DNA from: a bacterium
GTDB taxonomy: Bacteria > Electryoneota > Tariuqbacteria > Tariuqbacterales > JADHWD01
Assembly (NCBI GenBank): GCA_016783645.1
Contig: JADHWD010000001.1
Span: 1 to 51,569 of the forward strand
Direction: 5' to 3'
Length of the DNA: 51,569 bases
This document shows, one piece after another, positions 5,298-47,352 of the stretch. The notes beneath the pieces were generated by a model. The model had not been told where the DNA came from, ran no database searches, and saw nothing but the letters and a program-made list of their open reading frames with translations. Position numbers and translations under genes: made by a program. Every line of letters begins with the position of its first letter. Position 1 is the stretch's first letter.

Positions 5298-5299
5298 TC

Positions 5300-8333: not shown

Positions 8334-8368
8334 TCGTTAGTTAAGTAGTTAAGCGGTAAAACAGTAGA

Positions 8369-8542: not shown

Positions 8543-8687
8543 CTGTCCGAGAATACCGAAATCCTGTATGATCTGTTTTGATTTGATTCACTGGAAATTA
8601 TGGATATTATGGAAATATAAATATTTAGAATATCCATCATTTCCATTATATCCAGTGAATTTATTCACTTTTTCTATTCTCGGACAG
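8543..8687. mobile_element. MITE-like nested inverted-repeat element (non-coding)
   Basis: 13-nt terminal inverted repeat ctgtccgagaata (8543-8555) / tattctcggacag (8675-8687). Inner 10-nt inverted repeat attcactgga (8586-8595) / tccagtgaat (8651-8660). A solo end copy agtctgtccgag lies at 47123-47134. Confidence 0.45.
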
Positions 8688-8794
8688 ACTGCAGAGTCTG
8701 AAGTCTGAAGTCTAATTTTCATTGATCGATTCACATACATTATCACTGGGGCATCAGCTGCGATTATTTTAAGCAATTTCGGATAGGAGGTATT

Positions 8795-10213
8795 TTGAGA
8801 GTATTGTTTTTAAGGCCGCATTCGTCGATACCATCATCGGCGCCGCCGACAGGATTGTTGTCTTTAACTAGTTACTTGAGGAAATATGGGGACTATGAGA
8901 TAACGATTTTCGACGGCAGGGCTTATATGACTCCGACTGAGCAGGTTAAACCTCTGATAAAACAACATAAACCTGATGTAGTCGGAATCACCGCTTTTTC
9001 TCCGGAACAGCGGGAAGCGCATGAACTGGCGGAACTATCTAAAGAATTATTTCCGGGGATACCGGTGATTATGGGCGGTCCTTACACCACCAGTCAATGG
9101 GCTAAGGTGTTAGCGGATGAAAATGTGGATTATGCAGTGGTCGGCGAAGGCGAATTGACTTTGCTAAAATTGCTGAAAAGCATGGAGGAGGGTGAAAGAT
9201 ATCCCGAAATCAAGGGATTAGCTTTCAAGAAGAACGGTGAACAGATATTCTTCGGTTTCCCGGATTTCATCGAAAATATAGACACTATTCCGATGGTAGC
9301 TTGGGACGCGATAGATCTGGAATATTATTTCCGCAACAAGAAGAAGCGTTCGGGAATGAATCCCCATCCAAAATCCAACCGCACGGTGCCGATTTTCACC
9401 TCCAGGGGATGCCCTTACTTGTGCACTTACTGCCATAATGTATTCGGTAAAAGAATGCGCAAGCGTTCGGTGGAGCATGTGATGGAGGAACTCATCTATC
9501 TCAAGCGAAATCATGACATCAAGGAAATCGACATCATCGATGACATCTTCAATTTAGATAAAGAGCGAGCTAAGATTATATGTGACCGGATAATCGAAGA
9601 GAATCTGAACATTGGCATCGCTTTTCCCAATGGGCTGCGCACCGACTTGATGGATGAAGAGCTGATTGACAAGCTGGTGGAAGCGGGTGCTTTCCGCTTC
9701 ATTTACGCTATCGAATCCGGTTCCCCTAAAATTCAGAGGAGCGCCAGGAAGAATCTCAACTTGGAAAAAGCTAAAAGAATCATCGATTATACTGCCAGGA
9801 AGAATGTATCCGTCGGCGGATTCTTTATGTTTGGGTTCTTGGATGAAACGGAAGAAGACATGAGGATGACCATCGATTTCGCGGTTAAATCGAAGATGGT
9901 GACCGCCTCATTTTTCATCCTGCAGCCGTTCCCTAACACGGAAATATATAACCAAGCGATTGAGAAAGGCTACCCCCTGCCGGTAAAGGCGCAGCAGCAG
10001 TATTACGGCGTGACTTACAACATATCTAAAGTTCCCAAGGACAGAATCGACAAGTTGAGAAACTATGCCGTCAGAAAATTCTATTTCAATCCTATGCGCG
10101 TATATCGATACCTGCGAACAACACCTATCAAATATGCCTTCTGGTTGAAAATGAAAATGATTCTCATGTATCTATTCAAGACTAATCCGGAGGAAGAGGG
10201 AGCACGTTTATAG
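8795..10213 (+). CDS. Class B radical SAM protein, subfamily A, paralogue 5
   Basis: 472 aa. TTG start with AGGAGG upstream. 'MRVLFLRPHSSIPSSAPPTG', 'CPYLCTYC', 'AIESGSP'. About two-thirds identical to paralogue 4 (67/102 N-terminal residues by hand). Confidence 0.9.
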   Translation: MRVLFLRPHSSIPSSAPPTGLLSLTSYLRKYGDYEITIFDGRAYMTPTEQVKPLIKQHKPDVVGITAFSPEQREAHELAELSKELFPGIPVIMGGPYTTSQWAKVLADENVDYAVVGEGELTLLKLLKSMEEGERYPEIKGLAFKKNGEQIFFGFPDFIENIDTIPMVAWDAIDLEYYFRNKKKRSGMNPHPKSNRTVPIFTSRGCPYLCTYCHNVFGKRMRKRSVEHVMEELIYLKRNHDIKEIDIIDDIFNLDKERAKIICDRIIEENLNIGIAFPNGLRTDLMDEELIDKLVEAGAFRFIYAIESGSPKIQRSARKNLNLEKAKRIIDYTARKNVSVGGFFMFGFLDETEEDMRMTIDFAVKSKMVTASFFILQPFPNTEIYNQAIEKGYPLPVKAQQQYYGVTYNISKVPKDRIDKLRNYAVRKFYFNPMRVYRYLRTTPIKYAFWLKMKMILMYLFKTNPEEEGARL

Positions 10214-10247
10214 TTAAGTGGTTAAGTGGTTAAGTAGTTAAGTGGTT
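10213..10247. repeat. Octamer tandem repeat GTTAAGTR x4.4 starting on the last base of the stop codon
   Basis: gttaagtg gttaagtg gttaagta gttaagtg gtt. Confidence 0.9.
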
Positions 10248-10318
10248 TGGCAGGGAATTGACGGGGGGCTGTTTGTATGGGTAAATATAATAATCCCCCA
10301 TTAAAAAAGGGAGAAATC

Positions 10319-10422
10319 TAGCCCCCCTTTTCAAAGGGGGGAATATTTTAGTAGCCCGGTTTCTCCGAAACCGGGAAATTCTGGCAGGTCACACCCGCCT
10401 GCGGCGTGCAAGACCTGCCAGA
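10319..10422. repeat. Hairpin mosaic array 1 (three different palindromic elements)
   Basis: ccccccttt/aaagggggg; gtagcccggtttctccgaaaccggg (10351-10375); ctggcaggtcacacccgcctgcggcgtgcaagacctgccag (10381-10421). The last two recur at 42873-43460. Confidence 0.85.
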
Positions 10423-10434
10423 ACAGGATTTTTT

Positions 10435-10471
10435 AACTTGTTAACTTGTCAACTTGCAGACTTGTAGACTT
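10435..10471. repeat. Octamer tandem repeat RACTTGYN x4.6
   Basis: aacttgtt aacttgtc aacttgca gacttgta gactt. Confidence 0.85.
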
Positions 10472-10501
10472 ATTGTCAAGGTATATATCATGGAGATTAA
10501 G

Positions 10502-10690
10502 ATGAGACAATATAGATATACAGTAATAATTGAGCCGGCGGAGGAGGGCGGATATGTTGTGCATGTCCCAGCTTTGAACGGAATAGTTACTCAAGGTGAC
10601 ACTGTTGCAGAAGCCGAGGCGATGGCAGTTGATCTTATTAAGGGATATATTGAGACTCTTCAGAAAAAAGGTTTGCCTGTCCCTGAATAG
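10502..10690 (+). CDS. hicB: HicB-family (UPF0150) antitoxin, orphan (no hicA neighbour)
   Basis: 62 aa from ATG 10502, with GGAG 6 nt upstream. An alternative ATG lies at 10490, and the ORF-track start 10454 runs into the repeat array. 'YRYTVIIEPAEEGGYVVHVPALNGIVTQGDTVAEAEAMAVDLIKGYIE' fits the HicB pattern. Confidence 0.7.
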   Translation: MRQYRYTVIIEPAEEGGYVVHVPALNGIVTQGDTVAEAEAMAVDLIKGYIETLQKKGLPVPE

Positions 10691-10866
10691 ACAATTTTCA
10701 GGGTCGTTTATCATAAATAGTCCAACCATAAAATGTCATTCCCGCAAGTACATTGCTGGGCGGACGCGTCGGGAATCGATTCCGGACAAGCCGGAATGAC
10801 GAAAATGGGGCGTTGCTTTTTGACGAAGCAAAATATCACTTTCACACTTTCACACGTATTTAAATT

Positions 10867-12303
10867 TTGACCAGATTCGCTTTCATTCAGAACTTATGGA
10901 CGGAAAATCTGGGAATCATGTACTTGTCCGGGACACTGAAATCCCAGGGACATGAATCCCGGATTTTCATCGATGTCAAAGGCGCTGACGCTATGCGGCA
11001 GGTATTGGAATATCAGCCGCAGGCAGTTGGAGTGTCCTGCACTACCGGACTGCATCACTGGGGATTACAATTTCTGCGTAAAATTAAGGCGTCGCGCCCG
11101 GAGATAATCACTATCATGGGCGGACCTCATCCCACTTTCTGCCCGGAAGTCATCAGAGCTGAAAGCATCGATTTCGCAGTGCAGGGCGAAGCGGAAAATG
11201 TAGTCACAGATATTGCAGAAGCAGTAGAGGCGGGCGAAGATATCAGATATTTGGAGAATATAGTTCATCTTGACGGGGATGAAATAACCATCAATCCTTT
11301 ACGGAATTTGATCGAAGAGCTGGATTCTATTCCCTACCCGGATAGATCGCATTATGATAGATATGCTATCACCAAGCGGGAGGGTTCCAAAAATTTCATC
11401 TGCGGGCGCGGCTGCCCTTACCGCTGCTCCTTCTGCTGTAACTACCGCCTGCATGATATGTACCATGATAAAGGAAGATATGTCCGCTACCGTTCCCATG
11501 AAAATATCCTCGATGAAATCGAGGAAGTTAAAGACCGCTACGGGATCAAGTTCGTGGGTTTCTCCGACGACACTTTGATATTCAACAAGAAGTGGCTGTT
11601 ACCCTTTTTAGAAAAATACAAAGAACGAATCGGTTTGCCTTTCTTATCGACTGTGCGGGCAAATCTGATCAACGAGGAGGTGGTGCGGGGATTGAAGGAA
11701 GCGGGATGTATCTCCTGCGTATTCGGAGTGGAATCGGGCGATGAAAGAATCCGCAACGAAGTGTTGATCAAAGGGGTGTCCGATGATGAAATCCGCCGGA
11801 CAGCATCGCTGTTTAAAAAGTACAAGATAAGATTCGGCACTTATAATATGCTGGGTCTGCCGGGCGAAACTATCGTAGACGCCTGGAAGACGGTAAAGTT
11901 AAACGCGGAAATCAGACCCGATTTCCCCTGGTGCAGTGTGATTCAGCCCTACCCGGGCACCAAGATACATGAGGATATGCAGAAGACTTTAGGCAAGCAT
12001 ATCGACGCCGATGAAATCGGCGCTTCCTATTTCACCGCTTCCGTGGTGGATAATCCCCATATCAAACAGCTGGAAAACCTGCAGAAGTGGTTTCATCTGG
12101 CGGTCAGAGTTCCATTATTACAGCCTTTGATTCGCTTATTTATCAAATTACCGTCCAATCCTCTTTACACTCTGGTGTTTCAGGCTTGCTACGGCTGGCA
12201 GTTGCTGCGCAGGTCGAGGTTGAATTTACTACAGATGTTCAAATACTGGTGGACTCAGCAGGGGATGTTTAAGCGAAGCGGGAGAAAAAGGCGGAAAAAG
12301 TGA
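10867..12303 (+). CDS. Class B radical SAM protein, subfamily B, paralogue 1
   Basis: 478 aa, TTG start. 'GVSCTTG..IMGGPHPTF', cluster motif 'CPYRCSFC', 'GVESGDE'. Collinear with the ORF at 19416. Polybasic C-terminus 'RSGRKRRKK'. Confidence 0.85.
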   Translation: MTRFAFIQNLWTENLGIMYLSGTLKSQGHESRIFIDVKGADAMRQVLEYQPQAVGVSCTTGLHHWGLQFLRKIKASRPEIITIMGGPHPTFCPEVIRAESIDFAVQGEAENVVTDIAEAVEAGEDIRYLENIVHLDGDEITINPLRNLIEELDSIPYPDRSHYDRYAITKREGSKNFICGRGCPYRCSFCCNYRLHDMYHDKGRYVRYRSHENILDEIEEVKDRYGIKFVGFSDDTLIFNKKWLLPFLEKYKERIGLPFLSTVRANLINEEVVRGLKEAGCISCVFGVESGDERIRNEVLIKGVSDDEIRRTASLFKKYKIRFGTYNMLGLPGETIVDAWKTVKLNAEIRPDFPWCSVIQPYPGTKIHEDMQKTLGKHIDADEIGASYFTASVVDNPHIKQLENLQKWFHLAVRVPLLQPLIRLFIKLPSNPLYTLVFQACYGWQLLRRSRLNLLQMFKYWWTQQGMFKRSGRKRRKK

Positions 12304-12370
12304 AAGCGCCGGTGGAAGTGAAAAGATGAATTTGATTGAGATTTACTATAATATTCTGAGAGGATAGAAT

Positions 12371-13588
12371 ATGGCTGAAATCGTTTATAAAGAAAGAAAT
12401 CCTTTCACGCCGGATGAGCCGGTTTCAAAGGAAAATTTTGTTGGAAGAGAGAAAGAAATAGAGATGATCCTCCGTTCAGCGCATCAAGTATCAATGGGCG
12501 TTAGACAGAGTTTTTTTATAGTCGGAGATTATGGAATAGGCAAAAGCTCACTTGCGTCTTATATAAAATACGCTGTTCATACTCAATTCAATTTAGCCGC
12601 TTATCACATATATCTTTCTGATATCAACAGTCTTGAAGACATGTCTTTTAATATTGTAACCGGATTGATTAAACAATCAAAAGAACTGAATGTTATCGAT
12701 AAAGTGAAAAAATTTCTGGGAGAGTACATTAAAGAGATTCATCTTTTTAATGTTGATATTAATACTGAAGCATTAAAAAGAGATGCTTTTAATTTATCCA
12801 GTAGTTTCGCTTCGATGCTGCAGGATACTTATGCATATTTACAGGATGACTTTAAAGGGATTGCTTTAATTCTCGATGACTTGAATGGTATCAGTGATAA
12901 TCCCAGATTCGCACCTTTGATAAAAAGCACCGTGGATAGTATAGCCACAAGTTCTAGACCTTTACCTTTATTATTAATATTTTGCGGTGTAGAAAAGAGG
13001 CGGTTGGATATGATTTCTCATCATCCATCTATCGCCAGAATTTTTAGTGTTATCGATGTGAAACCGCTATCGGATAATGAAACAGCTAAATTCTTCCGGG
13101 ATTCATTTGATAAAATCGGCTTTAAGATTGAGAAGGAAGCTTTAGATACTATAGTCTATTATTCTTCCGGATTGCCAAGACTTATGCATGAAATCGGAAA
13201 CAGCGTTTTTTGGGTCACTGAAAAAAAATATATCGATTCAATAACCGCCATGAGAGGTATTCGCGGTGCGGTTGATGAAATTGGCCGCAAGTATTTCGGT
13301 CCCTTACAGAAAATTCTCACTTCGAAAGATTACAGATCAATACTTCGCTCTCTTCTGACTTTAATGGGAAAAAAATCCAAGGAAAACTTAGTTTTTGACA
13401 AGAAAGAAATCATAGAAAAACTATCTGATGCGGAAGCGAAAAAGTTCAATAACTTCTTACAAAGAATGAAAAACATTAATGCTATTCATCCCGGAGACAT
13501 TAGGGGAGAATGGTTTTTTTCTGACTATTTGACCTTTTGGTATTTCTACTTCGAGACGGAAAAATTGCTTAAGATTAATAAATCATAA
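12371..13588 (+). CDS. AAA_16/archaeal-ATPase-type (STAND-like) NTPase with probable C-terminal winged-helix region, low-GC
   Basis: 405 aa; 'FVGREKEI', Walker A 'GDYGIGKSS', Walker B 'ALILDDL'. The stop overlaps the next start (TAATG at 13586-13590). Confidence 0.7.
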   Translation: MAEIVYKERNPFTPDEPVSKENFVGREKEIEMILRSAHQVSMGVRQSFFIVGDYGIGKSSLASYIKYAVHTQFNLAAYHIYLSDINSLEDMSFNIVTGLIKQSKELNVIDKVKKFLGEYIKEIHLFNVDINTEALKRDAFNLSSSFASMLQDTYAYLQDDFKGIALILDDLNGISDNPRFAPLIKSTVDSIATSSRPLPLLLIFCGVEKRRLDMISHHPSIARIFSVIDVKPLSDNETAKFFRDSFDKIGFKIEKEALDTIVYYSSGLPRLMHEIGNSVFWVTEKKYIDSITAMRGIRGAVDEIGRKYFGPLQKILTSKDYRSILRSLLTLMGKKSKENLVFDKKEIIEKLSDAEAKKFNNFLQRMKNINAIHPGDIRGEWFFSDYLTFWYFYFETEKLLKINKS

Positions 13589-15006
13589 TGAAAATCCACC
13601 TGATAAATCCCCCTTCTCCCGGCGATTACCCTTTCACCCGCGAAGGGCGCTGCATGCAGAAAGAAGGCGTTTGGACCACTGTATGGCCGCCGATATCCCT
13701 CGCCACTATTGGTGCAGTTTTGCGGGAACACGGCTTCGATGTCAAGATCAACGACTGCCCTTCCGAGCGGATACGGATTGGCGGATTGAAGGAAATCCTG
13801 CGGGATTACCGGCCGGATTTATTGATAATCAATACCGCAACTCCTTCAATCCTGCATGATTTAACCATCCCTCACATCGCTAAAGAAACGCTGCCGGGAA
13901 TCAAAACCGCTGTTTTCGGCATCCATGTGGGGACACTCCCGGAAGACAGCTTTGAAACCGCCGGCGGGGATTTGGACTACATCATCCATAACGAGCCGGA
14001 ATTCACCGCTTTGGAACTGGCGGAAAAACTTGAAAACGGCATCGATTTCGGCGGTATATCAGGTTTATCCCACCGGCGCAACGGATATGTATCATCCAAT
14101 CCTGCCAGACAATATTACCGCGAACTGGACGAACTGCCTTTCCCCGCTTGGAATTTATTGAATTTGAATAATTACCGCCTGCCCTTCTCCGGGCGTAAAT
14201 TTGTGATGGTGATGACCAGCCGGGGATGCCCCTTCGACTGCACTTTCTGCGTGGCGCAAAGCTACTACGGCAAGAAAGTCCGCAAGCGGTCGGCTAAGCG
14301 GATTGTGGATGAACTGGAATGGAATATCAAAAACTTCAAAATCAAGGATTTCTTCTTCTGGTCGGAATCTTTCACCATCGTCAAGAAAAACATACATGAA
14401 TTGTGCGATGAGATATTAAGACGGGATTTGAATATCCGATGGGTGTGTAATAGCCGGGCGGATAATGTGGATTTGGATTTATTGCAGAAGATGCGGAAAG
14501 CGGGCTGCTGGATGATTTCTTACGGTGTAGAATCAGGCGATCAGAAGATACTCGATTTGTGTTTGAAACGAATCACGGTGGAACAGGTGCGGGAAGCGGT
14601 CACATTAACCCGGAAAGCAGGAATTGATATCGCCGGACATTTTGTGTTAGGACTGCCAGGCGATAATGAAGAGACCCTGCGTAGGACTTCCGCGTTTTCC
14701 AAAGAATTAGATTTGGATTACGCCCAGTTTTATTGCGCCGCGCCCTGGCCCGGGTCCCGGCTTTATGATACGGCGAAGAAAGAAGGATGGTTAAGCAATG
14801 AAGATTGGTCGCAATTCGAACAGTCCACTTCAATATTGAACTATCCCGATATCTCCGCTGAACGGATAATGCAGCTGCGCGACCGCATGACCAAGTCGTT
14901 CTATTTTCGGCCTAAAATCGTGTGGCGGACATTGAAGAAGGTGAAAAATTTCCGGGAATTTGTCAATTTCACCAGGATGATTCGAGGATTTTTAGACTGG
15001 ATTTAA
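13588..15006 (+). CDS. Class B radical SAM protein, subfamily C, paralogue 1
   Basis: 472 aa; 'MKIHLINPPSP..W.PPISLATIG', cluster motif 'CPFDCTFC', 'GVESGDQ'. Collinear with the ORF at 26236. Confidence 0.9.
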   Translation: MKIHLINPPSPGDYPFTREGRCMQKEGVWTTVWPPISLATIGAVLREHGFDVKINDCPSERIRIGGLKEILRDYRPDLLIINTATPSILHDLTIPHIAKETLPGIKTAVFGIHVGTLPEDSFETAGGDLDYIIHNEPEFTALELAEKLENGIDFGGISGLSHRRNGYVSSNPARQYYRELDELPFPAWNLLNLNNYRLPFSGRKFVMVMTSRGCPFDCTFCVAQSYYGKKVRKRSAKRIVDELEWNIKNFKIKDFFFWSESFTIVKKNIHELCDEILRRDLNIRWVCNSRADNVDLDLLQKMRKAGCWMISYGVESGDQKILDLCLKRITVEQVREAVTLTRKAGIDIAGHFVLGLPGDNEETLRRTSAFSKELDLDYAQFYCAAPWPGSRLYDTAKKEGWLSNEDWSQFEQSTSILNYPDISAERIMQLRDRMTKSFYFRPKIVWRTLKKVKNFREFVNFTRMIRGFLDWI

Positions 15007-15022
15007 TCTGAAATAGCAGTAG

Positions 15023-15049
15023 GGTGGGTTCTTAACCCACCTTTCCTTT
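15023..15049 (+). terminator. Putative intrinsic terminator (also a member of a repeated hairpin family)
   Basis: ggtgggtt ctt aacccacc followed by tttccttt, 17 nt after the stop at 15006. Related copy ggtggattaagaacccacc near 43280. Confidence 0.5.
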
Positions 15050-15094
15050 CCCGCCGTGTATCAAGTGAAGCGTAACCCGGCGGTTTGAAATATT

Positions 15095-15395
15095 CCCCGG
15101 TTTCGGATAAACCGGGCTACTGCATGAAGGGCAGACGCAAGGTCTGCCCCTACAAATAAATTTACTATATTGTAGGGGCGACCCTTGCGGTCGCCCTTCC
15201 CTGAAGGGGAAAACATGAATAGTCCGCTGTACAGTGGATTTAGGAGAACAGACTTTAGTCTGTTCAAAGGTGTCGGATTAAAGTCCGACCTCCTATACAA
15301 GGAAAATGATGAATTCTCTGATAGACTGCAAAGACATAAGCCTCTATTTTCATGCTTCTAGGTGCGCCGCAGGCGCATGAGGGTTTAATCCATAA
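15095..15395. repeat. Hairpin mosaic array 2 (about 8 palindromic elements)
   Basis: Includes ccccggtttcggataaaccgggctac (15095-15120), gggcagacgcaaggtctgcccctac (15129-15153) and gtaggggcgacccttgcggtcgccc (15172-15196). Also gaacagactttagtctgttc, gtcggattaaagtccgac and tgcgccgcaggcgcatgagggttt. Confidence 0.85.
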
Positions 15396-15428
15396 ACTAT
15401 CAATTAAGTATTACAAAATCTGTCGGAT

Positions 15429-16604
15429 ATGAGTTTAGACCTAATCCGGTTTATAGATAAATATTTAGGGACTCCGTTAAGGCTGTTTCTATATTATTAC
15501 CAGAAACTGCGGGATATTTTCCCGCAAAAGGAGAGCCGGGAGCCATACAAGAGGATACTGCTGGTAAAATTCTGGGGGATCGGCAACATCGTCCGATTGT
15601 CTCCCACATTAAAGGCGATCAGAGCGAGATTTCCGGAAGCTAAGATAACTTTCATCACTCTCAACCGCAACCGCGGTATTTACGAGGATTGCGGATTATA
15701 CGATGAGGCGCTGTATCTGAAACTCGATTCCATCCGCGCTTTTTTATGGGATATCATCAAGAAATTTTTCATCCTGAGGGCGAAAAAATTCGACTTAGTT
15801 ATCGATCTTGAACCTTTGGCGAATTTCGCTGAAATTGTGACCTTCTATGTCGGCGTCGGCGCCCGGGTGGGTTTCAATATGACGGGAAGGAGAAGCCTGT
15901 TCACGATAAAAGCGCCTTTCCGGGAAGATGAACATATTTCAAAATCATTCTTCAGGATATTATCGCCCTTTGGGGTCATAATATCCGATGAATTATTGCC
16001 GCTGCCCATACCTTTGGAGGATAAAGACCGGCAATATACTGAAAGACTACTATCTGACGAAAGCATAGATGCTAAAAGTTTGATAGTGGGAATGAATGTT
16101 AATGCGTCCAATGTGGCTGACGCCCGCCGCTGGCCGCCGGAGAAATTCGCCCAATTGGCTGATCGTATCGCGGAAGAATTGAAAGCTCAATTAATCTATA
16201 TCGGGGCGCCGGACGAAAGAGAACGGGTGCAGAATGTGATCGATAACACCTCCAACGGCGGGGTGAATATCGCCGGCAGAACTAGTCTGAAACAGACGAT
16301 AGCCGCGATGGAGATGATGAATATTTTCATCACCAACGATTCCGGACCTATGCATTTAGCGATGGCGATGGGCATTCCCACCGTGGCGATTTTCGGTCCC
16401 GAATCACCTGTGCGCTACGGACCCATCAGCGATAAGCATATTGCGATATTCAAAAATTACGACTGCAGCCCCTGTATATTCTTCGTGCAGGCGAAGAAGA
16501 TCAAGTGCAGGCAGGATGCGAAATGCATCCGGGATATAACTGTGGACGAAGTGTTTGAAGGGGTAAAAACGCTGTATCAAAGGTGGCTGAAGGAAAAATC
16601 ATAG
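15429..16604 (+). CDS. Glycosyltransferase family 9 (heptosyltransferase-like)
   Basis: 391 aa; N-terminal 'ILLVKFWGIGNIVRLSPTLKAIRARFPEAKITFIT' and C-terminal 'ITNDSGPMHLAMAMGIPTVAIFGP' are typical GT9 signatures. Confidence 0.8.
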   Translation: MSLDLIRFIDKYLGTPLRLFLYYYQKLRDIFPQKESREPYKRILLVKFWGIGNIVRLSPTLKAIRARFPEAKITFITLNRNRGIYEDCGLYDEALYLKLDSIRAFLWDIIKKFFILRAKKFDLVIDLEPLANFAEIVTFYVGVGARVGFNMTGRRSLFTIKAPFREDEHISKSFFRILSPFGVIISDELLPLPIPLEDKDRQYTERLLSDESIDAKSLIVGMNVNASNVADARRWPPEKFAQLADRIAEELKAQLIYIGAPDERERVQNVIDNTSNGGVNIAGRTSLKQTIAAMEMMNIFITNDSGPMHLAMAMGIPTVAIFGPESPVRYGPISDKHIAIFKNYDCSPCIFFVQAKKIKCRQDAKCIRDITVDEVFEGVKTLYQRWLKEKS

Positions 16605-17413
16605 TATCGGTCTCCCGCCGGAGCGATATCCCCGCATTTTTTGGGGAATGGTTCATCGAAAAGGTCAAACAAGGTTTTGTTGAAGTGCCCAATCCCTTCA
16701 ATAACTCCACCTACAGAGCGCCTTTATCGCTTGCAGAAACCGCCGCCTTCGTTTTCTGGTCGAAAAACTTCATCCCTTTCAGAGAGAAATTGACAATATT
16801 AGAGAAGATAGGATATCAAAAATTCCTCTTCAACTATACCATCACCGGTCTGCCGGAAATTTTTGAACCCCATGTTCCCCCCGCCGAAAAATCTATGGAG
16901 GACTTCATTGAACTCGCCAAAATTTACGGACGAGAAGTCATGTTCTGGAGGTTCGATCCCATCATCATTTCAGATATAACCGGATTTGATTATCATCTAT
17001 TAAGGTTTGGTGAATTGGCGGACAAATTGGCGGCTTACGCCGGACGCTGTATTTTCAGTTTCGCTTTCTTTTACCATAAAGTGAAACGCTCTTTGGAAAA
17101 ATTGAAAAATGATACAGGCGTCAGCGTCATCGACCCGGATGTCAATTTAAAAAGGGAATTAACTGAAGCGCTGAGTGAAAAAGCGGCGGAATTCGGTATA
17201 AAACTGCACGCCTGTTGCTGTGATTATCTGCTGGATATCCCAGGCATAGAAAAATCACGATGCGTGGACGGAGAATTGATAAGCGAGATGTACGGCGGAG
17301 AATATCGCTTTAAGGAAAAACCTTCCCGCCCCGGCTGCGGATGCTATGAATCCGTCGACATCGGTCAGTATGGAACTTGCCAGGGCGGATGTGGGTATTG
17401 TTACGCCGGGTGA
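16583..17413 (+). CDS. DUF1848-family protein (Cys-rich, Fe-S/radical-SAM-like)
   Basis: 276 aa. 'IIVSVSRRSDIPAFFGEWF' N-terminus and C-terminal 'PGCGCYESVDIGQYGTCQGGCGYCYAG' match my recollection of DUF1848. The start overlaps the GT9 gene by 22 nt. Confidence 0.7.
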   Translation: MAEGKIIVSVSRRSDIPAFFGEWFIEKVKQGFVEVPNPFNNSTYRAPLSLAETAAFVFWSKNFIPFREKLTILEKIGYQKFLFNYTITGLPEIFEPHVPPAEKSMEDFIELAKIYGREVMFWRFDPIIISDITGFDYHLLRFGELADKLAAYAGRCIFSFAFFYHKVKRSLEKLKNDTGVSVIDPDVNLKRELTEALSEKAAEFGIKLHACCCDYLLDIPGIEKSRCVDGELISEMYGGEYRFKEKPSRPGCGCYESVDIGQYGTCQGGCGYCYAG

Positions 17414-17416
17414 TTG

Positions 17417-17626
17417 GGTTAAGTGGTGAAGTGGTGAAGCGGTGAAGTGGTTAAGTGGTGAAGCGGTGAAGTGGTGAAGTGGTGAAGCGGTGAAGTGGTG
17501 AAGTGGTGAAGCGGTGAAGTGGTGAAGCGGTGAAGTGGTGAAGCGGTGAAGTGGTGAAGTGGTGAAGCGGTGAAGTGGTGAAGTGGTGAAGCGGTGAAGT
17601 GGTGAAGTGGTGAAGCGGTGAAGTGG
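17417..17626. repeat. 26-unit octamer microsatellite GGTGAAGY with 24-nt (T,T,C) super-period
   Basis: Parsed unit by unit. There are 24 ggtgaag[t/c] units and 2 ggttaagt units. It starts 4 nt after the TGA at 17411-17413 and ends 77 nt before ATG 17703. Confidence 0.95.
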
Positions 17627-17702
17627 GATTGATGGTAATTGCGCCATAAGATTGGAGAGAACGGATTTCGCAACGGAATATTTGTACTAAAAAAGGCTTT
17701 TT

Positions 17703-18431
17703 ATGAAGAAATTATCAGATCGAGAGATAGAAGATATTTACAATTTTGTAAAGTCATTCCACGAAAAATTTCTTGAAAAATCAGGAGTAATACTACCAAG
17801 CTTAAGGAAATCTGGTAAATTCACAAAGTCAGCATTGACGCTTGTTTTTCTTGCTAAAGATTATCCTAAAACCAGAATAGTATCGAAAAAGGAAATTACG
17901 GAATTCATTCGTAAATATTATCCTGACACAAATGATGTCCAAGATGCAAGACATCTGGGAATGCAGAAGGGATGGTATATCGCCTCCGGAACTCGAGGAA
18001 ATGGTATAGATGATTTGGGTTACGGTGAATATAAATTAGTGTCATTAGAGGAACCTCATCCGAATTTCAAACTTCATCGCAAAGAAATAGTCGGAGAACT
18101 CAATTGGGATGAGATTAAATCAAAATATGATTTTCGCTGCGCCTCTTGCGGTTCCAAAGAAGGTGAACCTAATTTTCGCTATCCCGGCACTACCACAAAA
18201 TTGACTCAGGGTCATATGGATCCTAATAAACCTTTGACTAAGGATAATACCATCCCGCAATGTGAAAAATGCAACCGCCCGGATAGAAATTACTGGATAT
18301 ATGATAGAAAGGGAAGAGTTATAAAAGTGGCCGATCCTTCCGCAGTCGCTAAGTCTGATGAAAGTGTTAAGTGGAAGATATATAAGATGCTATATAATGA
18401 TTATAGAGGTAAAAATCCCAATGATGAATGA
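17703..18431 (+). CDS. Putative type II restriction endonuclease, HNH (beta-beta-alpha-Me) type
   Basis: 242 aa, low-GC. 'CASCGS ... QGHMDPNKPLTKDNTIPQCEKCN' gives CxxC...H...N...CxxC. It is directly coupled to a DNA methyltransferase gene. Confidence 0.6.
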   Translation: MKKLSDREIEDIYNFVKSFHEKFLEKSGVILPSLRKSGKFTKSALTLVFLAKDYPKTRIVSKKEITEFIRKYYPDTNDVQDARHLGMQKGWYIASGTRGNGIDDLGYGEYKLVSLEEPHPNFKLHRKEIVGELNWDEIKSKYDFRCASCGSKEGEPNFRYPGTTTKLTQGHMDPNKPLTKDNTIPQCEKCNRPDRNYWIYDRKGRVIKVADPSAVAKSDESVKWKIYKMLYNDYRGKNPNDE

Positions 18432-19407
18432 TTATCTTAATCGGGTAATTTGCGGCGATGCGCTGGAGATACTTCCTAAATTTGATCCAAAATCCATCGA
18501 CATCGTACTAACTGATCCGCCTTATTTCTTGGATAAAATGGATAACAATTGGGACCACGAGAAAGTATCGAGTAATAAATATCAACATGCGGTGAAATCT
18601 TTGCCGCCGGGGATGAAATTTGACCGGGAACAGGGCAAACGGTTTTACAAATGGTTTCATAAAGTATCTTTAGAAGTGCATCGTGTCCTGAAACCCGGCG
18701 GATTTTTCTTCTCCTTTTCCAGTCCCAGATTATATCATCGCATGGCTTGCGCAGTCGATGACGCAGGCTTGTTAATAAAAGACTGCTTCATCTGGCTTTA
18801 TACACAAAATCAGGTGAAAGCGATGTCGATTAATCATTTCATCGACAAGATGGATGCAAGCGATGAATTAAAGAATGAACTAAAAGAGCGATTCGCCGGC
18901 TGGAAAACTCCGCAAATAAAATCTTGTTTTGAACCTATATTAATGGCGCAGAAACAGCCGGACGGCACTTTTTTAAATAATATGCGAAAACATAAAATCG
19001 GACTCTTGAATACAAATATCAAGATCGGGAAAAACATGTATCCCGCCAATGTCATGATGATTGACAATATAGATGAAGCGATAGATAAATATTTTCTTAT
19101 CGGCAAACCGGATAAATCCGAGAAAAAGGGATTTAATCACCATCGAACCGTCAAACCCTTGAAAATCTGTCAATATATTATTGAATTGTGCGCTTTTTCT
19201 CCGGAGGCGATTGTCTTAGATCCGTTTGCAGGAAGCGGAACAACGCTGGTAGCAGCAAAGAATTTAAATAAAAATTTCATCGGTATTGACATCAATCAAG
19301 AATATGTCAATCTCGCAGAAAAGAGATTAGGGATGTTGACAGATAACGAAAAAACACTATCAAACCGCCAAGATATTAATACAGTTTTACCGATATTCAA
19401 TCGATAG
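18421..19407 (+). CDS. DNA amino-methyltransferase (N6-adenine or N4-cytosine), beta class
   Basis: Motif IV 'TDPPYF' precedes motif I 'LDPFAGSGTT'. Start placed at ATG 18421, which overlaps the REase stop in ATGATGAATGA. The ORF-track start at 18358 lies inside the REase gene. Confidence 0.85.
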   Translation: MMNDYLNRVICGDALEILPKFDPKSIDIVLTDPPYFLDKMDNNWDHEKVSSNKYQHAVKSLPPGMKFDREQGKRFYKWFHKVSLEVHRVLKPGGFFFSFSSPRLYHRMACAVDDAGLLIKDCFIWLYTQNQVKAMSINHFIDKMDASDELKNELKERFAGWKTPQIKSCFEPILMAQKQPDGTFLNNMRKHKIGLLNTNIKIGKNMYPANVMMIDNIDEAIDKYFLIGKPDKSEKKGFNHHRTVKPLKICQYIIELCAFSPEAIVLDPFAGSGTTLVAAKNLNKNFIGIDINQEYVNLAEKRLGMLTDNEKTLSNRQDINTVLPIFNR

Positions 19408-19415
19408 ACTAATAG

Positions 19416-20828
19416 ATGGCCCGTTTACTTTTTTTACAGGAAGTCGCCTTCGAGTATGTCGGTGTGATGTGCCTTTCGGCTTATATTAAAAGCCGGGGGC
19501 ATCAATGTGATATATTAATCGAAAGTGAAGAAGGCAAAGATTTTTGGGCGAAGGTGAAAGATTATAAACCTGACGCAGCGGCGTTCTCGGCCATGACCGG
19601 TTCTCATGTGCACTACCTGCAGATGGCGGCTCAAGTCAAAGAGAAGCTCGATGTCCCGATTATATTTGGCGGACCGCACGCCACTTTCTTCCCGGAAATG
19701 ATAGAATCTCCGGTGATTGACGCAGTATGCCGCGGCGAAGGCGAAGAAGCGGTTGTCGATTTCCTCAACGCTGTCGAAAACGGCGGGGATTTTTCCGCTA
19801 TACCCAACCTTTGGACTAAACAGAATGGTGTGATAATCAGAAACGATGTCCGATGCGGCGAAAACCAGCTCGATAACTATCCTCCCGCCGACAGAAGCAT
19901 CTATTATAAATACAAATACCTGCGGAATTATCCCACTAAACCTTTCATCACCGGGCGCGGCTGTCCCTACCTTTGCACTTTCTGCTTCAACCGCGATTTC
20001 AATCAGATGTACCGGGGTAAAATGAAGATACTCCGCCGGATTTCACCCCAGAATGTCATCGCCGAAATAACCGGCTGTAAAGCGAAATATCCTTTGAAGA
20101 AAATTTTTTTTAACGATGATATTTTCATAATGCAGAAAGACTGGCTGGAGGAGTTTGCCCCGTTATATAGAAAGGAAATCGGAATACCCTACGCCTGCAA
20201 TGTGCGGGCGAATTTAGTCGATGAAGACCGGGTGAAATTATTGAAAGAATCGGGATGTTACTTAGTGATGTGGGGCATTGAATCGGGCGATGAAAAACGC
20301 CGGCGGGAAATTTTAGGCAAGAATATCTCCGATGAGCAGATTCGCAAAGCGGCGGCGCTGTTCCGCCAGTACGGCATCAAGATGAAAAGCTTCAATATCA
20401 TGGGCAGCCCGGGCGAAACTTTGGAAGAAGCGGTTAAAACTATCAAACTCAACGCCGAAGTCAAAATCGATTATCCCTGGTGCAGTATCCTCCAGCCTTA
20501 TCCCCGCACCAAAATCGCCGAAATCGCTGAGGAACAAGGCGTCCTCAAGAAAGATTATTCCTTAGATGATATGCACAAATCCTTCTTCGCCAACAGCGTA
20601 TTGAATCAGGGAGAAATGATACGGATTGAACGCCTGCAGAAATTGTTCTATTTAGGAGTGAAACTGCCCGGGCTGATTCCCTTGTTCACCTGGATGACCA
20701 AATATCCGTTAGGACTGCTGTTCAAACTGCTGTTCGGAACTTCGTTCCTTTACCGCTTCGCCCGGGAAGTGGATATACCGCTGTATAAGGCGGTGCTGTT
20801 CGCCCTGAGGCATAGGAAGAGTTATTGA
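19416..20828 (+). CDS. Class B radical SAM protein, subfamily B, paralogue 2
   Basis: 470 aa; 'FSAMTG..IFGGPHATF', cluster motif 'CPYLCTFC', 'GIESGDE'. Confidence 0.85.
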   Translation: MARLLFLQEVAFEYVGVMCLSAYIKSRGHQCDILIESEEGKDFWAKVKDYKPDAAAFSAMTGSHVHYLQMAAQVKEKLDVPIIFGGPHATFFPEMIESPVIDAVCRGEGEEAVVDFLNAVENGGDFSAIPNLWTKQNGVIIRNDVRCGENQLDNYPPADRSIYYKYKYLRNYPTKPFITGRGCPYLCTFCFNRDFNQMYRGKMKILRRISPQNVIAEITGCKAKYPLKKIFFNDDIFIMQKDWLEEFAPLYRKEIGIPYACNVRANLVDEDRVKLLKESGCYLVMWGIESGDEKRRREILGKNISDEQIRKAAALFRQYGIKMKSFNIMGSPGETLEEAVKTIKLNAEVKIDYPWCSILQPYPRTKIAEIAEEQGVLKKDYSLDDMHKSFFANSVLNQGEMIRIERLQKLFYLGVKLPGLIPLFTWMTKYPLGLLFKLLFGTSFLYRFAREVDIPLYKAVLFALRHRKSY

Positions 20829-20865
20829 GATATGTGATATTAGATATTTGATATGTGATATTTTT
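20829..20865. repeat. Heptamer tandem repeat GATATKW x5, starting on the base after the stop codon
   Basis: gatatgt gatatta gatattt gatatgt gatattt; the same unit follows the unrelated gene ending at 47038. Confidence 0.9.
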
Positions 20866-20993
20866 GTTCTGCAGAGTCCCCGCAGTCTGCAGCATCTTAA
20901 CCGTTCCGGCAGGTCCTGCACGCTTAAGGCGGGTGTGACCTGCCGGTATCCCCCGGTTTTTTTGTGGTGTCGACTCTCCGCAGTTGACACCAT
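20866..20993. repeat. Hairpin mosaic array 3
   Basis: ccggcaggtc...gacctgccgg (20906-20946) is the inverted counterpart of 10381-10421. gtggtgtcgac tctccgca gttgacaccat (20964-20993) is the inverted counterpart of 42959-42988. Confidence 0.85.
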
Positions 20994-28572: not shown

Positions 28573-28806
28573 ATAAACCCTCATGCCTCTGTTGCGGCAC
28601 AACTTAGAATGAAAATAGTCTCAAGGGCGACCGCAAGGGTCGCCCCTACAACATAATTGGATATTTACTTGTAGGGACAGAACATTGTTCTGTCCCTACT
28701 GGATTCCCGCCTTCGCGGGAATGACATATACACTCGTTCCCACGCTCCAGCGTGGGAATGCATATTCTTCATTCAACAATCGATATTCCTTGTTCGATAT
28801 TCGCAT
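28573..28806. repeat. Hairpin mosaic array 4 (about 6 elements, shared with array 6)
   Basis: Contains ataaaccctcatgcc..ggcacaacttagaatgaaaatag (28573-28618). gggcgaccgcaagggtcgcccctac (28625-28649) is the exact reverse complement of 15172-15196. Also gtagggacagaacattgttctgtccctac (28671-28699) and ggattcccgccttcgcgggaatgacat (28701-28727). tcgttcccacgctccagcgtgggaatgcata (28734-28764) is identical to 43245-43275. Confidence 0.9.
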
Positions 28807-31303: not shown

Positions 31304-31491
31304 TTAAACTATAATAAACGAAATAAATCAATTGCATTTACTGTAGGGGCGCGGTCTCCGCGCCCTATAATTGTCTGATTATAATCAGGGCGGGGAAACC
31401 CCGCCCCTACAAAATATTCGCAATATTTAAATTCGTTCATTATAAATCCCCTCCGAAAATTCAATACCTCCTCTCAATATAGATTGATGTT

Positions 31492-41602: not shown

Positions 41603-41812
41603 GTCATTTCATGTTCCCGACAGGTTTCAAGGGCAAAGCCCGTAACCTGCCGGGGGTATGCCTGCCGCTTTACGCCTCCTGCGGAGGCTTGAAAAACGGC
41701 AGGAACGAAAAGATCGATTATGAGTATGTCGGGGTCAGGGACGACCCCGACTACATGGTGGTGACGTCTACCTTAGTCTCGTAGTCCGGGTCGTCCCTGA
41801 CCCGGACATGTA
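41603..41812. repeat. Hairpin mosaic array 5
   Basis: cccgacaggtt..aacctgccggg (41616-41654), cctgccg..gcctcctgcggaggc..cggcagg, and the inverted pair gtcggggtcagggacgaccccgac (41728-41751) / gtccgggtcgtccctgacccggac (41784-41807). Confidence 0.85.
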
Positions 41813-41937: not shown

Positions 41938-42876
41938 ATGAAACCCGAATATCGAATATCGACTTTTATTATTTTATTTATTTTCGTTGCAGCGCCTTGT
42001 TACTCTGAGGGGCTTTCCCATATCCCCGGGGCTTTTGTAGATATAGGCTATGGTGCAAGGCCTATGGGGATGGGCGGCGCTTTCACCGGACTTGCCGACG
42101 ACCATAACGCCGTGATGTGGAATCCGGCGGGGATGTGCCGGGTGCAGGGGAACGGTATATCCTTCATGTGGGCTAAACAGTTCGGATTCGTTCCCTATAA
42201 TTATTTGAGCTATAGCCGGGAATTGGGCAAGGATTACAGGATCGGCGCCGGTGTGATTTTCAGCGGCGATGAAGTACTCAGCGAATCGACAACTTTAGTA
42301 TCTTTCGCATCCCCTTTAACCAGAGCCTGGTATAAACTATCCGATGTGTATTTGGGTTTAAGCGTCAAACTGCGCTGGGCTTCCTTCGGAAACAATTCCG
42401 ACGGAGATGCTGACCGAGTCACCGGCGACGCTTTCGGCTACGGCTTCGACTTTGGCATCATGGTGATTCCCAATGACAAATTTTCCGCCGGATTATTATT
42501 CCGCGATTTAGTGAATGACATCACCTGGAATTCTTCCTCCTCCGGCAAATACTCCGAATCGGTCCCGGAAGAATTGACTATAGGTTTCTCTTATAAACCC
42601 ACTTCAAGGTCGATAGTCGCGTTCGATTTGCGCAAAGCATTGTATAAGGATGTGGAGGACAGGATAATCATCGGCGTCGAACAGCAGTTGTTCGGATTAT
42701 TGAAACTCCGCGCGGGATGGGGCAGAAGTCTCAGCGCCGAATACTCCAACCAGGATATCGCATTAGGCTTAGGATTATATAGGGCTATCGGCAAGCTGGA
42801 TTTCATGTTCGATTTCGCCTATATGCTTAATGATTTGAAAAACACACCCCGGGTGGGAGCGAGTATTAACTGGTAG
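41938..42876 (+). CDS. Outer-membrane beta-barrel protein, PorV/PorQ- or UPF0164-like
   Basis: 312 aa; signal peptide; 'GARPMGMGGAFTGLADDHNAVMWNPAGM' resembles the N-terminal motif of PorV-type barrels (from memory); sits next to T9SS cargo genes. Confidence 0.5.
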   Translation: MKPEYRISTFIILFIFVAAPCYSEGLSHIPGAFVDIGYGARPMGMGGAFTGLADDHNAVMWNPAGMCRVQGNGISFMWAKQFGFVPYNYLSYSRELGKDYRIGAGVIFSGDEVLSESTTLVSFASPLTRAWYKLSDVYLGLSVKLRWASFGNNSDGDADRVTGDAFGYGFDFGIMVIPNDKFSAGLLFRDLVNDITWNSSSSGKYSESVPEELTIGFSYKPTSRSIVAFDLRKALYKDVEDRIIIGVEQQLFGLLKLRAGWGRSLSAEYSNQDIALGLGLYRAIGKLDFMFDFAYMLNDLKNTPRVGASINW

Positions 42877-43580
42877 CCCGGTTTCTCCGAAACCGGGGAA
42901 TTCTTTCCCGTCAGGTTACGGACTTCGTCCTTGAAACCTGACAGTAACAAACTTATATGTGGTGTCGACTGCGGAGAGTCGACACCACAAGGAATGTAAG
43001 GACAGAACAATGTTCTGTCCCTGCTGGATTCCCGCCTGCGCGGGAATGACATATTGGCATCAAGCTCTTCATTATTCCTTGTTCGATATTCCTTGTTCGA
43101 TATTCAGATGGCAGCCCGGTTTCTCCGAAACCGGGGGAAATAAATTTACTACGGATATACAGGATATTCAGGATAAACCCTCATGCGCCGGCGGCGCACA
43201 ACTTAGCATGAAAATAGCGGTTCTGGGCTCTTGGCTCTCCCCTCTCGTTCCCACGCTCCAGCGTGGGAATGCATACAAAGGTGGATTAAGAACCCACCCT
43301 GCACCTCAGCGACTTTTGTAGGGGCGAAAGGTTTTCGCCCTCATTGCGGTTGAAAATTATTGCGAGGGCAAACGCCGTTTGCTCCTACAGGCAGCCCGGT
43401 TTCTCCGAAACTCAGGATGCTGGCAGGTCACACCCGCCTGCGGCGTGCAAGACCTGCCAGAACAAGAAACTAGACCCTAATCCCTAGCCCCCAGTCCCTA
43501 TTTTCAAAGTAAGTAGGGGCGAAGCATTTTTTTATTAACAGTACTATTTTACTAAGGTTACGAAAATGCTTCGCCCTTAC
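42873..43580. repeat. Hairpin mosaic array 6, the largest (at least 12 elements from about 10 families)
   Basis: In order: gtagcccggtttctccgaaaccgggg (42873-42898); cccgtcaggtt..aacctgacag (42907-42944); gtggtgtcgactgcggagagtcgacaccac (42959-42988). Then ggacagaacaatgttctgtcc; ggattcccgcctgcgcgggaatgacat (43026-43052); TTCCTTGTTCGATAT x2; the cccggtttctccgaaaccggg element again (43111-43137). Then ataaaccctcatgcgccggcggcgcac.. (43173-43217); ttcccacgctccagcgtgggaa (43248-43269); ggtggattaagaacccacc; gtaggggcgaaaggttttcgccc. Finally ctggcaggtc..gacctgccag (43420-43460) and the long hairpin 43513-43580. Confidence 0.9.
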
Positions 43581-43682: not shown

Positions 43683-43730
43683 TTACCGTTTACTGTTTAC
43701 TATTCACTGTCAACTGTCAACTGTCAACTA
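43683..43730. repeat. Heptamer tandem repeat (YNACTRT)n x6.9 upstream of the T9SS cargo gene
   Basis: ttaccgt ttactgt ttactat tcactgt caactgt caactgt caacta. Confidence 0.85.
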
Positions 43731-47038: not shown

Positions 47039-47051
47039 GATTCCCGTCAAA

Positions 47052-47097
47052 GATATTTGATATGTGATATGTGATATTTGATATGTGATATTTGATT
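47052..47097. repeat. Heptamer tandem repeat GATATKT x6.5, 14 nt after the stop codon
   Basis: gatattt gatatgt gatatgt gatattt gatatgt gatattt gatt; same unit as 20829-20865. Confidence 0.9.
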
Positions 47098-47243
47098 TTA
47101 GGCTTTTGGCTCCGGGCTTAAAAGTCTGTCCGAGGATGAAGAAAACTACAAAAATTGGTTGGCGCCGGCTCTCTGTAGTTGACACCATGTTATTGTTTTT
47201 TAAAAACATGCTGTTGACCACAGAGGGTCGACAGCACATAAAT

Positions 47244-47326
47244 AACTCTTAACTCTTAACTCTTAACTCTTAACTCTTAACTCTTAACTCTTAACTCTTA
47301 ACTCTTAACTCTTAACTCTTAACTTA
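47244..47326. repeat. Heptamer tandem repeat AACTCTT x11 (+ aactta)
   Basis: Eleven perfect units from 47244 to 47320; reverse complement of the array at 1-27. Confidence 0.95.
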
Positions 47327-47328
47327 TT

Positions 47329-47352
47329 CAGCCCGGGTCGGGCTGTTTCTTT
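47329..47352 (+). terminator. Terminator-like hairpin plus T-tract between the repeat array and the MFS gene
   Basis: cagcccg ggt cgggctg followed by tttcttt. Confidence 0.45.

Follow-up and report, generated by a model that had tools for sequence, protein, structure and literature searches.

Mosaic intergenic arrays of hairpin-forming repeats in an uncultivated FCB-group bacterium: probable coexistence of REP/RAYT and SRM/Ssn systems

We describe here the intergenic arrays of short palindromes carried by a 51,569-nt stretch of DNA (the window; contig JADHWD010000001.1 of assembly GCA_016783645.1) from an uncultivated marine bacterium. These blocks are very probably mosaic arrays of non-autonomous, hairpin-forming mobile repeats from two known superfamilies that coexist in the genome. 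In the best explanation that we can offer, the first superfamily comprises GTAG-tagged repetitive extragenic palindromic (REP) sequences and their inverted doublets (REPINs), together with REP-associated tyrosine transposases (RAYTs, or TnpAREP) of the HUH-Y1 type, one per family, whose genes lie outside the window and are bracketed by their own REPs. The second comprises CGTC/TGTC-tagged hairpins of the NTS/SRM kind, together with a small single-domain GIY-YIG nuclease specific for single-stranded DNA (Ssn) that is bracketed by its repeat. This conclusion was drawn from copy numbers, restriction of the units to intergenic DNA, bracketing of enzyme genes by repeats, covariation, inverted doublets, modular adjacency, and the presence of filled and empty junctions. 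The arrays are of known kinds (REP/REPIN-RAYT and NTS/SRM-Ssn) and are an unusually dense and diverse example of them, not a new system. What stands out is the density (∼45% of the DNA outside open reading frames, ORFs), the number of families (at least 35), the presence of at least six RAYT genes and the fact that the two systems are interleaved in shared mosaics.

Repeat families in the window and in the genome

The window is the longest (C169) of the 221 contigs that make up the 2.73-Mb genome, which has a GC content of 45%, a completeness of 77.6% and a contamination of 1.6% (contigs of this assembly are designated C, related genomes G and loci L). A first-pass annotation of the window had described six intergenic blocks built from about ten families of palindromic units. 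All six coincide with stretches of 13-mers occurring at least six times genome-wide. However, the list was not complete, as the repeat finder and the 13-mer map gave further blocks at 8338-8692, 10730-10855 and 31307-31446, and ten families are too few, the window having at least 20. The individual repeats cited in the annotation were all recovered: the 31-mers at 28734 and 43245 are identical, 15172-15196 and 28625-28649 are exact reverse complements, the form ATTCCC-N8-GGGAAT is present at 28703 and 43028, both pairs of stem variants (GGGCGACC/GGTCGCCC and GGGCAGAC/GTCTGCCC) exist, and the unit CCCGGTTTCTCCGAAACCGGG has five copies, of which those at 10355, 42877 and 43115 are exact, the one at 15096 is inverted and has a single mismatch, and the one at 43395 is cut short. 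An Rfam search of the window gave no family match.

Each of twelve seeds from the window was found again 9-225 times, on 8-126 contigs, and 11 of them at least 51 times, which rules out local duplication alone. Perfect hairpins with stems of at least 8 bp number 4,931 in the genome, while a shuffled genome gave 421. With overlaps removed, 2,556 hairpins remain, and de novo clustering placed ∼1,800 of these in ∼28 families of 7-217 members. Searching with these 28 families, nhmmer returned 2,211 non-overlapping copies, 93.5% of which lie outside ORFs of at least 120 aa and only 143 (6.5%) inside, against a baseline of 78% of the genome spanned by such ORFs. Nine more families (B, H, L, Q, R, S, T, U and V; 52-270 copies each) were obtained by greedy consensus. 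When a repeat block is defined as at least 18 nt built from 13-mers present at least six times in the genome, the blocks add up to 292 kb and occupy 10.7% of the assembly, or 44.5% of what lies outside ORFs; 27 kb of this is short-period tandem repeat, 96 kb belongs to 37 annotated families, and linkers and minor families make up the remainder. Across the genome, the two orientations are roughly balanced in most families. The share of repeated 13-mers is 3-6 times lower in G001, the nearest available relative and a member of the same order (equal 400-kb samples); the G001 sample nevertheless has fam10, fam4, fam18, fam1 and fam0.

In a metagenome-assembled genome (MAG) that is fragmented into 221 contigs and 78% complete, arrays of this kind might be an artefact of assembly or binning produced by chimeric joins of short repeats, and short-read contigs do break within the arrays. 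However, assemblies from two independent studies, of marine and aquatic metagenomes, hold the locus at ∼19-28x with identical unique flanks, the families occur on up to 126 contigs among ordinary genes, and related genomes have the same units beside RAYT and ssn genes. We regard an artefact as extremely improbable. Short contigs from the metagenomes also cover parts of the main array of the window (42876-42986 and 43273-43447). Since these Logan contigs break inside the arrays, they confirm the flanks only, and no insertion polymorphism can be read from them. Several contigs of the assembly itself begin within repeat arrays (C129:1-481, C144:1-447, C203:1-504 and C3:30-503), which suggests that the repeats are what breaks up the MAG contigs of this lineage.

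GyrB is at most 68% identical to its counterparts in MAGs of Ignavibacteria, Bacteroidota, UBP1, Calditrichota and Gemmatimonadota, and only two of the 41 related genomes (G001 and G002) belong to the same order. This agrees with the FCB-type (Fibrobacteres-Chlorobi-Bacteroidetes) lineage guessed in the annotation and, as judged from sequence, places the organism as a deep FCB-group bacterium. The closest metagenome relatives of the ORF at 41938-42876 reach at most 60% identity, and for this reason spacers cannot be compared across orthologous loci.

Organization of the main array

The main array (42873-43580) was resolved into the following units. Fold values are those of the unit as single-stranded DNA, with z-scores relative to shuffled sequences; most single units fold well below their shuffles (z -4 to -6.6).

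42873..42900, + strand: unit A (fam6), GTAG-tagged REP GTAGCCCGGTTTCTCCGAAACCGGGGAA; nhmmer 34 bits, 153 copies genome-wide, fold -9.9 kcal/mol (z -4.2)
42907..42949, + strand: unit J, long-stem hairpin (CCCGTCAGGTT...AACCTGACAG); inverted copy at 41612-41654, fold z -2.55
42960..42989, - strand: unit G (fam0), TGGTGTCGACT-loop-AGTCGACACCA; 275 copies, the most abundant family, fold -14.4 kcal/mol (z -6.6)
42993..43028, + strand: unit D (fam19), GTAG/GTAA-tagged hairpin (GGACAGAAC...GTTCTGTCC); nhmmer 40 bits
43024..43051, - strand: unit E (fam10), NTS/SRM-type (CGTC-tagged) hairpin, TGTCATTCCCGCGCAGGCGGGAATCCAG on the - strand; 97 copies, includes the dRS3 form ATTCCC-N8-GGGAAT
43072..43106, + strand: unit L, non-hairpin linker repeat of short tandem copies of ATTCCTTGTTCGATA; 106-118 copies
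43111..43136, + strand: unit A (fam6), second copy, with GCAG in place of GTAG; nhmmer 31.5 bits
43174..43220, - strand: unit H, linker module (CTATTTTCATGCT...GCATGAGGGTTTA on the - strand); 152-159 copies, weak hairpin (z -0.69)
43243..43278, + strand: unit F (fam4), TCTCGTTCCCACGCTCCAGCGTGGGAATGCATAC; 165 copies, fold z -5.3
43277..43300, - strand: unit I (fam7), degenerate copy of the GTAG-tagged GGTGGGTT...AACCCACC hairpin; inverted match to 15021-15044
43317..43389, unstranded: REPIN-type inverted doublet of fam22 GTAG REPs, tags outward; nhmmer matches 43317-43343 (+) and 43363-43389 (-), fold -15 kcal/mol
43391..43411, + strand: unit A (fam6), truncated third copy, followed at once by unit B in the arrangement of the recurrent 6->B module
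43417..43463, + strand: unit B, nested hairpin with a 10-bp outer stem (CTGGCAGGTC...GACCTGCCAG); 94-99 copies, fold -14.8 kcal/mol (z -3.9), other copies at 10378-10428 and, inverted, 20903-20953
43505..43580, unstranded: unit Q, resembling a MITE (miniature inverted-repeat transposable element), with 18-nt GTAG-tagged inverted arms (GTAGGGGCGAAGCATTTT ... AAAATGCTTCGCCCTTAC) and an AT-rich loop; second copy at 8369-8434, 258-270 arms genome-wide, fold -17.1 kcal/mol (z -6.1)

The array starts within a gene, the TAG of the first GTAG (42873-42876) being the stop codon of the ORF at 41938-42876. Units D and E form a recurrent composite (adjacency 19->10 found 21 times), of which a 60-nt copy that is 93% identical lies at 28670-28729. 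A GTG-start ORF of 120 aa (42959-43321) is located entirely within the array; it is almost certainly a repeat artefact and not a gene, and annotators should be aware that such ORFs arise from these repeats.

GTAG-tagged REPs and RAYT genes

About half of the families are GTAG-tagged. The consensus opens with GTAG in fam3, 7, 8, 12, 13, 14/16, 15, 19, 22, 23, 26 and Q, and with GTAG or GCAG in fam6, and fam0, 1, 2, 4, 5, 9, 11 and 18 have no GTAG tag. The extended tag GTAGGGGC occurs 638 times where ∼53 occurrences are expected. The annotation had reported no RAYT gene in the window, as our profile searches confirm. Such genes are located elsewhere in the genome: using PF01797 and NF047646, we found at least six and a fragment, three of which exceed the NCBIfam equivalog cut-off. 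Five are bracketed by repeats as follows.

C66 (5123-5605): inverted fam0 units (window unit G)
C47 (3531-3989): fam8 (window unit K)
C221: the fam14+16 two-hairpin element
C215: fam12 and fam13
C83: fam23

In C199, C215 and C83 a REP is also found inside the ORF, directly after the HxH motif. The partners of two further window units were seen in relatives. In G009 (L104), a RAYT gene is flanked left and right by REPINs of unit A (GTAGCCCGGTTTC...), and intact unit I (GTAGGGTGGGTTCTTAACCCACC) brackets the RAYT genes of the same-order genomes G001 and G002 (L095 and L096). Of the 41 genomes of the phylum, 38 have RAYT homologues, the highest number in any one of them being 19.

The proteins carry the motifs NHIH...WQ...YIxxNP (C83, C199 and C215), NHIH...YIHNNP (C66), EHIH...YIHNNP (C47) and YIHKNP (the C148 fragment). 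On the basis of these motifs and of the REP inserted within the gene, and assigned by motif rather than by tree, C83, C199 and C215 appear to fit TnpAREP subclass 2.4, the hallmark of which is the insertion of REP units inside the gene (PMC6006769). By the same kind of motif assignment, C66, C47 and the C148 fragment would fit subclass 2.6, which is known mainly from Bacteroidetes and whose flanking structures, described as 'atypical', have further copies at other sites of the genome (PMC6006769). The RAYT-like ORF of C199 (6517-7239; L010/L012) contains three in-frame tandem copies, with a 78-nt period, of a REP composite (fam26+fam3). Right after the HxH motif, this insert encodes the repeat ESVGAGFTPAH(N/D)RATARVA(S/P)T, with NNNST after the first two copies; in this tandem insertion C199 differs from the published subclass 2.4 (PMC6006769).

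CGTC/TGTC-tagged hairpins and the probable Ssn nuclease

The annotation had compared the ATTCCC-N8-GGGAAT units with the Neisseria dRS3 repeat. The units at 28699 and 43024 read TGTCATTCCCGCG(A/C)AGGCGGGAATCCAG; they match the SRM motif, and the first base is their sole departure from the NTS definition. Ssn proteins are site-specific single-stranded DNA nucleases, and their NTS/SRM repeats include dRS3 (Chenal et al. 2025, PMC11893778). The match to this published motif shows that the comparison was right, and that the family has a known type of enzyme partner. Genome-wide, the SRM motif has 73 matches against 12 in a shuffle, and the strict NTS definition has 8.

The genome encodes a single GIY-YIG (ssn) homologue (C176:8894-9181, 96 aa, PF01541 51 bits), and this gene has on either side a perfect 42-nt copy of the TGTC-tagged unit T, the two copies being inverted. 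Homologues occur in 34 of the 41 related genomes. At ∼20 of the 30 homologue loci that were fetched, CGTC/TGTC-ATTCC...GGAATCC hairpins stand on both sides of the gene; the one flanking ssn at L223 is essentially unit E (fam10) of the window, and this flanking of ssn by E was seen only in relatives. These loci extend the published Ssn-SRM association into this lineage. We had considered the association of GIY-YIG genes with hairpins as potentially new, and rejected this since it was published in 2025 (PMC11893778). The small GIY-YIG genes were recorded at L207-L235 (G001-G039); G037 has 11 matches, several of them fragments or with internal stops. The flanking CGTC/TGTC-ATTCC hairpin comes in a separate variant for each gene.

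When the genome was scanned for genes with inverted units of one family on both sides, the scan returned only the known RAYT genes, which acted as positive controls, the GIY-YIG gene and ordinary genes expected by chance, and no partner gene was found for unit F (fam4).

Stem covariation and grammar of the arrays

The annotation had noted a few variants in which double changes preserve the pairing of the stem. The covariation analysis was anchored only on GTAGGGGC. A perfectly complementary inner 4-bp stem was found in 362 of the 638 sites, with 22 different inner sequences, against 33 sites in the shuffled-partner control. Covariation was then scored on 45 distinct sequences picked regardless of inner-stem pairing, among which all four free pairs vary on both sides. 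Paired cells amount to 96.9% versus 82.5% in shuffles, the covariation score is 0.446 versus 0.162 and was reached by none of 500 shuffles, and pairing drops to 37-55% in slid controls. The compensatory stem changes are thus significant, the number of independent events being close to that of subfamilies and not of copies.

The arrays hold at most 16 units, and half of them consist of a single unit. Inverted doublets of the REPIN type at fixed spacing number 46 among 100 units in fam8, 25 among 53 in fam15 and 10 among 30 in fam22; doublets also occur in fam1 (50), fam0 (23) and fam11 (15), and many other families are mostly singlets. In E. coli BIMEs (bacterial interspersed mosaic elements), the palindromic units alternate in orientation and a few conserved linker motifs join them. 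Here, modules at fixed spacing and the linker repeats H, S, L and V occur, and doublets alternate in orientation, but many modules are co-oriented and mix families. Composites of mixed families at fixed spacing comprise S-0-2-(5|3|13)-H, a recurrent supermodule that ends with H, 6->B (2-nt gap, 16 times), 19->10, 4->7->H and 10->Q-Q. With 191 distinct oriented adjacencies, the order of the units is indeed shuffled, as the annotation had stated, but it is not free: since fixed composites recur, it follows a grammar. None of the mapped arrays shows one constant repeat alternating with unique spacers as in CRISPR, although no dedicated CRISPR test was made.

Fixed composites could also mean that the arrays are decayed fragments of a few larger MITE-like or insertion sequence (IS)-like elements and not collections of independent small units. 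The fam0->fam2 and fam2->fam5 successions (117 and 67 times), the 64-nt fam14+16 element (58 copies) and the ∼200-nt S-0-2-(5|3|13)-H supermodule, which occurs in tandem, are in line with this idea. However, the assembly has no repeat block longer than 1 kb and no coding IS that matches the units, so that the arrays are not IS fragments; nor was an autonomous parent IS found for the units, including unit Q, which is MITE-like in form. The 191 adjacencies, the single-unit arrays, the lack of an end-to-end match between the main array and any common supermodule, and the bracketing of single-copy RAYT genes by single families also speak against decay from larger elements, which we judge quite unlikely.

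Some junctions were found both empty and filled. Of 122 cases of the 0->2 linker, 106 are canonical, and a J-type element of ∼117 nt interrupts the linker on C200 and, at two sites, on C46; a Q element occupies the 6->B junction on C211 and C175, and a GTAG REP the 2->5 junction on C203, C183 and C112. We read the filled and empty versions as probable nested insertions, an indirect sign of mobility.

E. coli TnpAREP binds and cleaves its REP as single-stranded DNA (PMC3479197). By analogy with the biochemistry of this enzyme and of Neisseria SsnA, the RAYT and Ssn proteins would recognise a folded single-stranded hairpin together with its tag and cut next to the hairpin. Units would be copied or moved while the DNA is single-stranded, new copies may land beside or within existing units, and successive landings could build mosaics similar to BIMEs behind genes.

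Position of the repeats relative to genes

Repeats fill 36-46% of the bases in co-directional, convergent and divergent spacers alike. In crude gene calls, spacers are strongly co-directional (1,137, against 127 divergent and 120 convergent), and the mean spacer is ∼300 nt, a length that is inflated by the repeats. A repeat block starts within 10 nt past the stop codon in 25% of the crude genes and at or before it in 261 of 1,942 (13%), so that many genes have an end that a repeat supplies or overlaps. In some singlet families one orientation relative to gene direction prevails (fam6, 73:25), and in a fragmented MAG this bias is inseparable from replication direction.

These positions raise the possibility that the hairpins are gene-end signals selected by the host, either terminators or stabilisers of mRNA 3' ends, and that repetition results from functional selection and not from mobility. 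Besides the proximity to stop codons and the orientation of singlet families, this explanation draws on E. coli REPs, which are reported to act in 3' untranslated regions (bioRxiv 10.64898/2026.03.23.713779). However, only 1.1% of family hairpins have a U-tract-like flank, compared with 7.5% of non-family hairpins, and a terminator scan of the array region gave no excess over shuffles. Classic intrinsic terminators were rejected because family hairpins lack U-tracts and because of this absence of terminator excess. Moreover, both orientations are equally common in most families, divergent spacers are as repeat-dense as the others, and hundreds of near-identical copies together with bracketed nuclease genes indicate copying; the locus was found in none of the RNA runs searched. 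A gene-end role is compatible with mobility and may be a secondary use, the shielding of mRNA 3' ends being one possible benefit for the host, but as the sole explanation of the arrays we think it unlikely.

Several observations weigh against mobile repeats of two superfamilies as the origin of the arrays. The window contains no enzyme gene. In this 78%-complete MAG, fam1, fam4, fam9, fam11, B, H and S are abundant and have no partner gene; fam2 and fam5 also lack one and are tied to fam0 by sequence resemblance alone, and the partners of units A, I and E were seen in relatives only. Neither activity nor transposition nor population polymorphism can be observed, since the short-read contigs end within the arrays. 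Finally, divergent (promoter-side) spacers are about as repeat-dense as the others, unlike the situation of E. coli REPs, and the orientation bias of some singlet families may reflect an RNA-level function or replication direction.

Relation to known systems and significance

The GTAG-tagged units have the properties of the REP/BIME-RAYT systems of Enterobacteria, Pseudomonas and Stenotrophomonas (PMC2817692, PMC3116915, PMC3479197): GC-rich imperfect palindromes of 20-40 nt with a 5' GTAG tag, tens to hundreds of intergenic copies per family, REPIN doublets, mosaic clusters with linker motifs, and for each family a single RAYT gene flanked by that family's REPs. They differ from these systems by the number of families (∼28 hairpin families and at least nine others), by a genome share of ∼10.7%, where E. 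coli REPs reach up to 1% (PMC6006769), by supermodules of different families, by the absence of depletion in divergent spacers and by the host, an uncultivated deep FCB-group bacterium. The density is therefore ∼10 times the figure cited for E. coli in that study.

The second superfamily resembles the Neisseria dRS3/NTS-Ssn system (PMC11893778) and the CGTC-tagged REPs (PMC3733652) in its SRM-fitting units and in the repeat-ssn-repeat architecture. In contrast to Neisseria, ssn of this genome is flanked by the TGTC-tagged unit T and not by the NTS-like family, and no role in transformation can be deduced. The analogy drawn in the annotation with BIMEs and with Neisseria intergenic mosaic elements (NIMEs) is largely supported, and the arrays are now tied to RAYT and Ssn enzymes. 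In NIMEs, RS repeats of 50-150 bp are each enclosed by dRS3 inverted repeats; the likeness to NIMEs concerns the match to the dRS3/NTS form alone. The statement that such arrays are uncharacterised in FCB lineages was only partly true: TnpAREP subclasses 2.4 and 2.6 have been described in Bacteroidetes (Quentin et al. 2018, PMC6006769), as have CGTC-tagged repeats in Bacteroidetes and Chlorobi, for which no other repeats are listed (PMC3733652). The GTAG REPs had not previously been catalogued in this lineage, whereas CGTC repeats and RAYTs were already known from Bacteroidetes.

Two systems that were described separately are interleaved here in the same arrays of one small genome, and several REP-RAYT pairs are common to the order or the phylum. 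The organism is a natural case for studying the coexistence of hairpin repeats, the choice of insertion sites and vertical co-inheritance outside Proteobacteria. A more far-reaching version, which we put forward only tentatively and hold to be doubtful, is that the genome is an extreme case in which RAYT, Ssn and possibly further systems have together come to occupy nearly half of the intergenic DNA, the families numbering at least 35, through nested insertion targeted to hairpins and with a reproducible grammar. The partnerless families (fam1, fam4, fam9, fam11, B, H and S), which have 70-170 copies each, would in that case be moved by another enzyme or in trans by RAYT or Ssn, and the host may depend on the units as gene-end structures.

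Cyanobacteria offer a further parallel. Elhai and colleagues reportedly described there, in 2008, small dispersed repeats (SDR), consisting of many tiny hairpin families nested in one another, and these are said to coexist with hundreds of tandem heptamer arrays (short tandemly repeated repetitive sequences, STRR). Nested small hairpins and heptamer arrays are likewise found in the present genome, which belongs to a different phylum; the resemblance is one of description only.

Other repeats and genes of the window

Outside the main array, the hairpin units of the window are arranged as follows.

10351..10421, + strand: 6+ -> B+ module with a 2-nt gap (array mapping)
15022..15387, unstranded: array 7-, 6-, fam12-like GGGCAGAC hairpin (15129), 3+, 20+, H+ (profile and sequence check)
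20865..20992, unstranded: array 18+, B-, 0+ (family profile and array mapping)
28623..28802, unstranded: array 3-, 19-, 10-, 4+, L+, with the second NTS/SRM-type unit at 28699-28726
31342..31411, unstranded: REPIN doublet of fam15 GTAG REPs, in a block absent from the first-pass annotation
41726..41809, unstranded: unit K (fam8) as a REPIN doublet, its two GTAG-tagged hairpins inverted and separated by 26 nt (profile matches), fold -29.9 kcal/mol (z -6.4)

Short-period (7-9 nt) tandem arrays are found at gene ends of the window (17361-17664, 10205-10262, 47045-47107, 47229-47338, 43690-43729 and 1-28). TRF detected 921 short-period arrays in the genome, 533 of them heptameric, for a total of ∼30 kb, and they often adjoin hairpin units. 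Longer repetition of another kind is present at 1386-20828, where a series of class-B (B12-binding) radical SAM paralogues has conserved nucleotide blocks in common (direct-repeat families D3-D12); these paralogues sit in a glycan-assembly locus with heptosyltransferase and export genes.

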